This document shows positions 2,964-4,510 of a DNA stretch of 64,000 nt, one piece after another. A program made the translations under genes and the position numbers. The stretch is from a virus. Its lineage: Duplodnaviria > Heunggongvirae > Uroviricota > Caudoviricetes. The DNA is taken from the IMG/VR virus record IMGVR_UViG_2565956713_000001; one strand, given 5' to 3'. The stretch's first letter is position 1. Each line of letters begins with the position of its first letter. The notes below the pieces were generated by a model. The model searched no databases. It was not told where the DNA came from and saw only the letters and a program-made list of their open reading frames with translations.

Positions 2964-3428
2964 CAGGGTTTTCGTCATGGTTAGCGACTTTGCGGCGGTT
3001 TAGAAACTGACCATTAAAGTAAATGCAAACGATGATCTGATGATGGTAGCGGCCTAAGAAGCCAGACGCCACGGGGTATGAGTCGTCCCCCGTCAAAAAA
3101 TCGACCGCAGAGTGTCCCCGTCTGTGTATTAGGGAACGGGGAGGCACAACAGGTAAGGGCGCTGGTGTGATTAACCAGATGAACGAGAAGGGGCCATCTG
3201 TTGGTCAGCGTCCTTTCCTGTTGCGTCTTCTTTTCAGCGTAACAGCGGTGCTTAACAGCACTTTGGGTACAGTTCCACGAATTTACGGGTATATCCCGTC
3301 ATGCTGAAAGCGCTAATCACGCTGGAAGCCAGGGTTATGCATCCCCTGTTACCGAATTGCAGCCAGGGCGCGGTGCGCCGAAAAGCATACGGAGGTGGAA
3401 GCCCTCGCCGGAGACGTACCCGGCAAGT

Positions 3429-3504
3429 GATGGTGTAGCTCAGCGGTTAGAGCGGTTGACTGTTAATCAACGGGTCGATGGTTCAAATCCATCCACCATC
3501 GCCA
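3429..3504 (+). tRNA. tRNA-Asn (anticodon GTT)
   Basis: 76-nt cloverleaf folded by hand: 7-bp acceptor GATGGTG/CACCATC, D arm GCTC/GAGC, anticodon loop CTGTTAA, T arm GATGG-TTCAAAT-CCATC, encoded CCA. Confidence 0.85.
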
Positions 3505-3506
3505 AT

Positions 3507-3582
3507 GCCGGTTTAGCTCAGTTGGTAGAGCGCCTGCCTTGTAAGCAGGATGTCAGCGGTTCGATTCCGTTAATCGGCACCA
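3507..3582 (+). tRNA. tRNA-Thr (anticodon TGT)
   Basis: 76-nt cloverleaf: acceptor GCCGGTT/AATCGGC, anticodon stem CCTGC/GCAGG with loop CTTGTAA, T loop TTCGATT, encoded CCA; 2 nt after tRNA-Asn. Confidence 0.85.
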
Positions 3583-4510
3583 GCACAACAGGTAAGGGTA
3601 TTTTGCGACGTCGGAGATCGCCGAGCTTGGCAGAGGGTTCGAATCCCTACGAAGTACCCTTACCGTTGTGATGAATGCGCAGGCTGATGCGCGAAAGACA
3701 TTGCAGCTATTGCGGAAAAGAGCTGTTCGGCGGGGCAATTAAACGCCCGTGAGAGTCTGAAATAACCGCAAGCCGGAGATCAGCACCGGTCATCACAACA
3801 CAACAGGTAAGGGCATTCTCCCTTATGGGGCTTGGCTTAAATGCATCGAGTGCTCTTACCGTTGTGATGAAGTGCAGCTCTTTGAAGCAACCAGAAGATA
3901 AGCATCTGGCTTCACAACATAAACCGCAGGAACGACCAATAAACGGTAGTCCGTATGGAGAACACCCCGTTGAGGAAGAGGCCTGGCCGGAACCGTAACC
4001 GGCACTACAACGTTGAGAACACTGGCGTAACGGGGTCATATCCCAATCTACGAATAAATGTTGCGTTGCAGCGTGACAACCAGTGTTCTCAACATTGTGG
4101 TGAATGCACAGGCTGATGTGCCGCAACTACAGTAGTGCGCGCTTTGCGGGGCTTGCTACAACCCTGTGTCGGAGTTCAGCACCGACCATCACAGTTTGAT
4201 TCTCTGGCATGAGCATAACGCTGAAATAAGTCCAGCCTGGTGCGGCCCGATCACCCGCCGTTAGCTCCACGAAACGGAGCACGTAACAGGTAAGAGCATT
4301 CTCCTGTAACGGGTTCATATCCCAATCTACAGGTCCACCAAGAATGCTCTTTCCGTTGCGGTGAATGCGGCTAAGCGCACGCGGGGAAATGGTTATATCA
4401 GTCCATTCATTTCTCCTTGTTTCCCCGTCCACGGTGGATAACCAGCCAAAGGACACCGGGAGGCACCCGGCACCGCAGCTTTTTTATTCGTTAAATAATG
4501 GAGTGAGAGG

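Follow-up and report, generated by a model that had tools for sequence, protein, structure and literature searches.

Five hairpins in the leader of the ban operon

The IMG/VR virus record IMGVR_UViG_2565956713_000001 comprises 64,000 nucleotides (hereafter the window) of a P1-like phage or plasmid-prophage. Here we describe an array of five imperfect hairpins, H1 to H5, which alternate with tRNAs and with stem-closed elements termed U units. The region from 2750 to 4520 is 98–99% identical to phages vB_EcoM-813R1 and RCS47 and 97.6–98.2% identical to P1 records, and the array lies in the gap that separates the end of dmt (2753) from the plus-strand open reading frames (ORFs) that follow. The annotation of P1 record NC_005856 was transferred through alignment, a window position being the position in locus L001 (reference P1) plus 1249. 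Downstream of the C1 operator Oban, the P1 record lists a 'dicF-like region', trnA and trnT, plus the minus-strand ORFs plp and upl over the modules. A terminator scan found one strong plus-strand terminator (stem 2937–2956 plus U run), and no other sigma-70-like promoters were predicted within 2650–4650, hence none internal to the array. The features of the array, with folding z-scores (z) and the scores of our scaffold covariance model R1, are as follows; U units and the region upstream of H1 are listed further below.

2744–2773, plus strand: C1 operator Oban (ATTGCTCTAATAAATTT at 2744–2760) with promoters P1ban and P2ban, at the end of dmt (P1 annotation); start of the transcript carrying the whole array
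2868–2963, plus strand: dicF-like region with the intrinsic terminator at its end (P1 annotation and terminator scan)
3146–3223, plus strand: H1, scaffold hairpin at its canonical place after two pseudoknots; z −4.4, R1 31.8 bits
3429–3504, plus strand: tRNA-Asn (GTT); ARAGORN, Rfam tRNA 74.5 bits
3507–3582, plus strand: tRNA-Thr (TGT); ARAGORN, Rfam tRNA 73.4 bits
3586–3668, plus strand: H2, scaffold hairpin, tip with T-arm-like AGGGTTCGAATCCCT; z −5.4, R1 43.3 bits
3801–3864, plus strand: H3, scaffold hairpin, tip CTCCCTTATGGGGCTTGGCTTAAATGCATCGAG; z −5.9, R1 47.1 bits
4003–4102, plus strand: H4, variant hairpin with its own 23-bp stem, tip ACGGGGTCATATCCCAATC, common to H5; z −8.3, no R1 match
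4284–4358, plus strand: H5, scaffold hairpin, tip ACGGGTTCATATCCCAATC; z −6.4, R1 45.3 bits

ARAGORN and Rfam detect only three true tRNAs in the window. A tRNA with a CAU anticodon at 5583–5658 is called tRNA-Met (CAT) by ARAGORN, while the homologous P1 gene is annotated as tRNA-Ile2 (trnI).

An initial annotation had reported five related long hairpins interleaved with the tRNA genes. This observation was confirmed, as all five are present on the plus strand (z −4.4 to −8.3) and, for each of them, none of 200 dinucleotide shuffles was as stable as the real hairpin. H1, H2, H3 and H5 have a common lower stem, CAAC-A-GGUAAGRGC ... GCYCUUWCC-GUUG (in fuller form CAAC-A-GGUAAGRGCAUUG / CAGUGCYCUUWCC-GUUG), which spans about 20 bp and consists of 4 bp, a bulged A, 2 bp, a U.U or U-A position and then at least 10 bp. 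The shared flanks that had been ascribed to all five modules hold for these four, whereas H4 lacks the AACAGGTAAG flank; likewise, the 3' TGAATGC tail ascribed to every module is absent from H1. The stem of H4 (CAACGTTGAGAACACTGG / CCAGTGTTCTCAACATTG) is unlike the scaffold and pairs in the scaffold register at only 8 of 19 positions. As R1 misses it as well, we regard H4 as a variant that is tied to the family via its tip and its context. H4 does contain the perfect 14-bp closing stem noted earlier (GTTGAGAACACTGG / CCAGTGTTCTCAAC), and the shared core GTAACGGG(K)TCATATCCCAATCTAC was found at 4027–4051 and 4306–4330 with 96% identity. The compensatory exchange in the so-called tail hairpin (GCGCAGGCTGATGCGC versus GCACAGGCTGATGTGC) is genuine, but this element lies outside the hairpins and constitutes the first arm of the U units. 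The present analysis adds that the hairpins alternate with U units, that the family exceeds P1-like phages and that H1 is located in a unit resembling transfer-messenger RNA (tmRNA).

Pairing statistics were calculated for 77 distinct H scaffold sequences. In these, 88.7% of the cells hold a standard pair, compared to 35–59% after sliding the 3' partners, and none of 500 shuffles reached any of the five measures. Pairing is kept through compensatory change, with 14 of the 19 pairs changed on both sides; examples include CAAC/GTTG to TATC/GATA and GAGC/GCTC to GCTGC/GCAGC. Pair 8-37 is non-standard, mostly U.U, in 53 of the 77 sequences, and pair 16-29 is U.G in 58. This conserved U16.G29 wobble, which would be C.A on the opposite strand, and the G.U variants fit the plus strand only. 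The suggestion of a family of structured elements is thus borne out at the level of RNA on the tRNA strand.

When the whole window was searched with R1, the plus-strand matches were exactly H1, H2, H3 and H5 (31.8–47.1 bits), and the only minus-strand matches were to H3 (19.0 bits) and H5 (22.4 bits). Elsewhere, the model scored 50.2 bits in lambda and 45.8 and 36.5 bits in HK620. Since the training set held some of the scored sequences or identical copies of them, these scores indicate consistency and strand rather than independent discovery. They refer to default filters only; with filters off, the scores were low and fragmentary, probably as long tips did not fit into the model window. Rfam in permissive mode returned only chance-level matches of the hairpins to miRNA precursors and ALIL, and the scaffold is neither contained in Rfam 15 nor annotated in RefSeq E. 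coli genomes. The sole match to the Y RNA-like YrlA (RF02553) reached 27 bits against a threshold of 69 and covers the two true tRNAs and no hairpin. Integron attC sites were considered and rejected, as the 3' flank GTTGTGA does not fit the GTTRRRY core (R''/R' = RYYYAAC ... GTTRRRY) and the strand-specific G.U pairing indicates RNA.

If the minus strand encoded proteins, the repeats could reflect coding constraints. Minus-strand ORFs of 139 and 109 codons do lie over the array, and the P1 and RCS47 records annotate them as Plp and Upl (overlying 3707–4456 on the minus strand). However, stop codons and frameshifts break these ORFs in Ro157c2YLVW, SJ46 and P7; they are truncated where modules differ and have no match in Pfam, and the records of P7 and D6 annotate no gene at this place. 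Furthermore, a plus-strand ORF of similar size reads straight through two tRNA genes. Given their disruption in close relatives and the lack of Pfam matches, plp and upl are probably not genes, and we consider a coding explanation of the repeats hardly credible. The earlier description of the array as non-coding was therefore upheld, and in the P1 reference genome plp and upl are flagged as likely mis-annotated. In summary, the hairpins are best explained as RNA elements in the non-coding leader of the C1-repressed ban operon, on the strand of the tRNAs.

P1-like phages vary in their module content, and the break points fall within the repeated flanks. Reference P1 lacks UA (one of the U units) and H3, both of which are present in the window (3665–3864), and the difference starts and stops in the repeated CCGTTGTGATGAA flank, which is consistent with recombination between scaffold repeats. 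In P7 and D6, a tRNA-Ser plus another hairpin replace H5. The flanks might hence matter chiefly as DNA, providing short linkers of homology for recombination and module shuffling, with RNA folding being incidental. The sharing of nearly identical units by unrelated phage families would also fit such a role. In contrast, compensatory changes preserve pairing between divergent copies, both the U.G wobble and the model scores are specific to one strand, and a homologue is cut in vivo by an RNA-specific enzyme (see below). A function chiefly as DNA linkers is accordingly quite improbable.

The additional tRNA of P7 (L006, 2480–2566) and D6 (L004, 2307–2393) has a long arm and the anticodon UGA (Ser). 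As Rfam tRNA-Sec it scores 46.6 and 43.1 bits, respectively, just short of the threshold of 47. A sixth hairpin comes next, and its tip equals the inside of the lambda U-like unit.

Proposed RNase III processing and exchangeable tips

Pattern scans and BLAST revealed the scaffold, CAACAGGTAAGAGCATTG – tip – CAGTGCTCTTTCCGTTG, in more than 100 IMG/VR contigs. It occurs in HK620, where the copies lie between pR'/qut and the late terminator, in a Klebsiella siphovirus and in the Ackermannviridae phage Magnus. Lambda carries a canonical copy at 44,789–44,860, directly behind the 6S/tR' terminator and followed by a U-like unit that extends to 44,941. No scaffold copy was found in the K-12 prophage DLP12. 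A scan of one genome per species gave hits in L269 and about 20 further loci, on contigs roughly 48.5 kb long with low coverage, from assemblies of unrelated taxa such as Pseudomonas, Shewanella and Oceanobacillus. L269 can be recognised as phage lambda by Q, pR' and 6S RNA; the remaining contigs have the same 71-nt match span and are presumably lambda too, contaminating public assemblies.

The dicBF operon of the K-12 prophage Qin comprises, in this order, a hairpin (1,649,172–1,649,257), a homologue of the P1 dicF-like region, DicF, an STnc100-like U unit and dicB; the dicF-like region of the window (2868–2963) is homologous to the Qin sequence upstream of dicF. The fold of the Qin hairpin runs through 7 bp, a bulge of one base, 2 bp, a 1x1 mismatch and 10 bp, with 16 of the 19 scaffold pairs kept in register; 28 of 39 nt are identical to a family member. 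According to published work, a 190-nt DicF precursor is lost when RNase III is mutated, and cleavage by this enzyme creates the precursor's 5' end (bioRxiv 10.1101/2023.04.14.536235, citing Faubladier et al. 1990). Subtracting 190 nt from the annotated 3' end of DicF leads to approximately 1,649,245, which lies within the 3' strand of the Qin hairpin. As the hairpin coincides with a mapped cut, we interpret the conserved lower stem as a substrate of RNase III, which supports the role as processing signals suggested in the initial annotation. The predicted stems of 20–23 bp with one bulge or mismatch also correspond to the roughly two turns of regular double-stranded RNA of an RNase III site.

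We therefore favour, with moderate confidence, the reading that the hairpins are RNase III processing stems with exchangeable tips, which punctuate an array of tRNAs and U RNAs. Host RNase III would cleave the conserved lower stem, whereby neighbours in the polycistronic RNA, namely the tRNAs and the U units related to STnc100 and PasD, would be separated from each other. Cleavage might also free the tip as a small hairpin RNA. By analogy with Qin, the P1 copies are likely to be cut in the same way, and it may be speculated that the released tips have an activity of their own. Several points weigh against this reading. The position of the Qin cut was derived from a gel-estimated length of 190 nt and not from the published 'positions 813/814', and the scaffold model detects neither the Qin hairpin nor H4. 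The processing of lambda late RNA is taken from the title of a paper and not from cleavage coordinates. In addition, about 50 structured tips (9–170 nt) on a near-identical scaffold across unrelated phage families would not be needed for simple cleavage sites, so processing may be only part of the function.

The P1-like array and the Qin DicF site have in common the hairpin architecture, a related scaffold and the position in the leader of a repressor-controlled early operon. They differ in that a single copy without tRNAs or a tag (see below) is present in Qin, compared to five copies among tRNAs in the P1-like window; the Qin copy was formerly described as a cleavage site and not as a member of a family. 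The late RNA of lambda reportedly contains sites that are processed by RNase III in vivo, going by the title of Daniels et al. 1988. These sites and the early hairpins of T7 are likewise imperfect, bulged hairpins between the units of a polycistronic phage transcript. The T7 hairpins separate the mRNAs of early genes and lack variable structured tips. A conserved basal stem from which a variable hairpin is released is also found in animal pri-microRNAs cut by the RNase III enzyme Drosha. This parallel is one of mechanism only and implies no homology, the Rfam matches to miRNA precursors being at chance level.

The hairpins can thus best be viewed as a new and widely distributed version of the hairpins at which phage RNAs are processed by RNase III, one whose tips are exchangeable. 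One conserved RNA scaffold would connect the RNase III cuts in lambda late RNA with the maturation of the DicF precursor and with the non-coding DNA that surrounds the P1 tRNAs. This suggests that phages use a common cassette of conserved stem and exchangeable tip to express and excise small structured RNAs.

The tips of 101 distinct modules fall into 52 unrelated clusters of 9–170 nt. The most frequent type, a cargo cluster of 10, is represented by the H3 tip CTCCCTTATGGGGCTTGGCTTAAATGCATCGAG. H4 and H5 carry ACGGG(G/T)TCATATCCCAATC, a diverged form of a phage motif, which retains three G-C pairs, U33, CAU and A37. The version of this motif in lambdoid prophages, GACGGGCTCATAACCCAATCC, includes 13 nt (GGGCTCATAACCC) that are identical to the anticodon stem-loop of E. 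coli initiator tRNA; the initiator tRNA sequence was verified against 5,426 genomes. T-arm-like motifs such as AGGGTTCGAATCCCT in H2 occur in 7 of the 52 clusters, and the tip in phage Magnus combines D-arm-like and T-arm-like segments. The earlier suggestion of tRNA-derived elements consequently applies to some of the tips (H2, H4 and H5), while most tips show no resemblance to tRNA.

These likenesses raise the question whether the tips themselves are the point, with the scaffold displaying mimics of tRNA parts as decoys or inhibitors of tRNA-directed enzymes, for instance anticodon nucleases of host defence or toxin systems. The 13-nt identity in the lambdoid tip, the features retained in H4 and H5, the T-arm-like clusters, the D- and T-arm-like segments of the Klebsiella phage tip and the location of the elements in phage tRNA clusters would be in line with such a function. 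However, tRNA resemblance is absent from most tips and in no case reaches the Rfam tRNA model, and the idea is entirely inferential, with no linked defence system. We therefore regard mimicry as unlikely to be the main function, compared to the processing of the array by RNase III. A literature search for initiator-tRNA mimics and for P1 transcript data returned nothing specific.

In lambdoid prophages (L002, 2640–2790, and many IMG/VR loci), a hairpin that ends in GCTCTTTTTACAA stands ahead of the one bearing the initiator-tRNA-like tip, and the latter is followed by TGGAGAAAC and by the first ORF beyond the repressor gene. The end of the preceding hairpin is terminator-like and resembles boxA. 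Because of this boxA-like sequence, an antitermination (put/nut-like) RNA was considered; the idea was dropped, as the P1 copies lack GCTCTTTTTACAA and no further support was found. A 170-nt tip of a 205-nt H module (L157, L178, L191, L202, L229) contains CTGACGAG...CGAAAC...GTC, which resembles a hammerhead core. Rfam, run on L157, reported no hammerhead in this tip at E up to 0.01.

U units

The U units are closed by GTTGTGRTG ... CAYCACAAC and occupy the following positions.

3220–3428, plus strand: large degenerate U-like domain with the closing stem GTTGC/GCAAG, which a CCGG-AGACGTAC-CCGG hairpin adjoins (both from reading of the sequence only)
3665–3799, plus strand: UA, tRNA-like cloverleaf with the closing stem GTTGTGATGA/TCATCACAAC and D-like and T-like hairpins with complementary loops
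3861–3918, plus strand: UB, a short and degenerate U unit, in which a closing stem and a T-like hairpin can be read from the sequence
4094–4194, plus strand: UC, tRNA-like cloverleaf with GCAC-AGGCTGAT-GTGC and GTCGG-AGTTCAGCA-CCGAC
4357 to 4480–4487, plus strand: UD, STnc100-like, closing stem TGCGGTG/CACCGCA, z −2.7, U run behind

The folding of UB is unexceptional (z −0.7). Copies of UA in lambdoid phages are 97.8–98.6% identical. In a U scaffold alignment of 38 sequences, 95% of the cells are paired, and two-sided changes affect all four pairs of the D-like stem and three of the five pairs of the T-like stem. The loops of the two hairpins (GCTGAT/ATCAGC) are complementary yet nearly invariant, so the proposed loop-loop contact rests mainly on conservation. 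As in a tRNA, the conserved 7-bp closing stem abuts the 5-bp T-like stem; this acceptor-like stem, UGUGGUG/CACCACA, has U-A at position 3:70. Neither the H tips nor the U units matched the Rfam tRNA model (RF00005) at E up to 10, and ARAGORN made no call. In Klebsiella phage ZC2 (L127, 1619–1677), a tRNA-like sequence lies immediately 3' of a U unit. It matches positions 8–63 of the Rfam tRNA model with 39.4 bits, has no pairing acceptor stem and is not called by ARAGORN.

UD matches STnc100 (RF02076) with 37.8 bits over model positions 31–147 of 206, which misses the gathering score of 47, and its relatives in P7, D6 and Ro157 score 38–43 bits. STnc100 and PasD are prophage-encoded small RNAs; PasD was discovered among Hfq-bound RNAs with RIL-seq and confirmed by northern blotting (bioRxiv 10.64898/2026.05.13.724894). 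They share with the U units the closing stem, the start GGTGAATGC and the end CACCGGGAGGCACCCGGCACC. Unlike these RNAs, UA and UC carry different internal hairpins with complementary loops. The likeness concerns the neighbours of the H hairpins and not the hairpins themselves.

A tmRNA-like unit upstream of H1

The region between the dicF-like terminator and H1 contains the following elements.

2967–3023, plus strand: conserved leader GGTTTTCG..GCGACTTTGCGG..TTTAGAAACTGACCATTAAAGTAAAT, kept in 65 unique units from unrelated phages
3024–3056, plus strand: tag frame GCA AAC GAT GAT CTG ATG ATG GTA GCG GCC TAA, encoding ANDDLMMVAA*, with coding-type variation
3070–3104, plus strand: pseudoknot a, stem ACGGGG/CCCCGT, loop GTCG pairing with downstream CGAC (covariation)
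3106–3140, plus strand: pseudoknot b, S1 CGCAG/CTGTG and S2 CCCCGT/ACGGGG (covariation)

The leader has weak matches to the Rfam models tmRNA_permuted and beta_tmRNA. The tag exists in 24 distinct nucleotide versions, each with 10 codons and a stop codon (TAA, TAG or TGA) at the same site. Entropy at the three codon positions is 0.61, 0.39 and 0.89, that is, highest at the third, and the other frames are stopped in most versions. Since an in-frame TAG lies eight codons upstream and a start codon is missing, the tag frame is not the end of an ordinary ORF. The stop codon sits in the loop of a hairpin 3' of the tag and ahead of the pseudoknots. In pseudoknot a, the helix between loop and downstream sequence is paired in all 65 sequences, and each of its 4 positions has changed on both sides. 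In pseudoknot b, S1 covaries (CGCAC/GTGTG, CGCAG/CTGTG, CGCAT/ATGTG) and S2 varies in length. H follows the tag at +114 to +123, and a U unit comes next. The tag unit was also detected in HK620, where the tag reads ANEEMYLAVA, in Klebsiella phages and in more than 100 viral contigs; ANDDVVLMAA is a further version of the tag.

This arrangement resembles tmRNA (ssrA) in several respects. The 10-codon tag starts with GCA AAC GA, aligns with the E. coli ssrA tag in length and register and ends in a hydrophobic residue followed by Ala-Ala (endings LAVA, LMAA and MVAA). It is apparently entered without a start codon, and a stop-codon hairpin and two covarying pseudoknots lie behind it. In contrast to tmRNA, the tRNA-like unit is contiguous and downstream rather than split; we know of no tmRNA with a tRNA-like domain wholly 3' of the tag. 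A tmRNA-type tRNA-like domain formed from the 5' and 3' ends, with G3.U70 and a CCA end, was not found in the unit, where a 3' CCA is encoded occasionally. ARAGORN called no tmRNA, and the Rfam tmRNA models scored 14–26 bits compared to gathering scores of 47–84. A hidden standard or permuted tmRNA was rejected, as no acceptor strand was found at the 5' end of the unit. The literature searched yielded nothing specific on phage tmRNA-like RNAs and named phage tmRNAs only for mycobacteriophages and Bacillus phage G.

We treat the tmRNA-like unit as a strong lead and not as a conclusion. Tentatively, a non-canonical tmRNA-like RNA can be proposed for P1, HK620, Klebsiella sipho- and Ackermann-type phages and many prophages, with a translated degradation-type tag of 10 codons, pseudoknots, a long cargo helix (the H family) and a contiguous tRNA-like domain; we consider this possible but doubtful. 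If true, this RNA would tap or compete with host ribosome rescue, and the exchangeable tips, including the mimic of the initiator anticodon arm, would provide variable specificities. As some very well-studied phages carry this unit with its tag and pseudoknots, a possible phage intervention in ribosome rescue becomes directly testable.

The hairpins themselves could then be working arms of such an RNA (leader, tag, stop hairpin, two pseudoknots, H and U) instead of mere cut sites. The targets of this RNA would be stalled ribosomes or the trans-translation machinery of the host, and the additional H-U pairs of P1 would be duplicated arms. The coding-type variation of a tag that always has 10 codons and one of three stop codons at one site, its upstream in-frame TAG and missing start codon, the covarying pseudoknots, the fixed distance from tag to H and the stacking of the 7-bp acceptor-like stem of U on the 5-bp T-like stem would all agree with this. 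Nevertheless, we rate it as rather unlikely: the G3.U70 identity pair for alanine is missing, CCA is rare, ARAGORN is negative, Rfam scores are below the thresholds and the tRNA-like domain lies wholly 3' of the tag. Moreover, lambda and Qin carry H and U without a tag.

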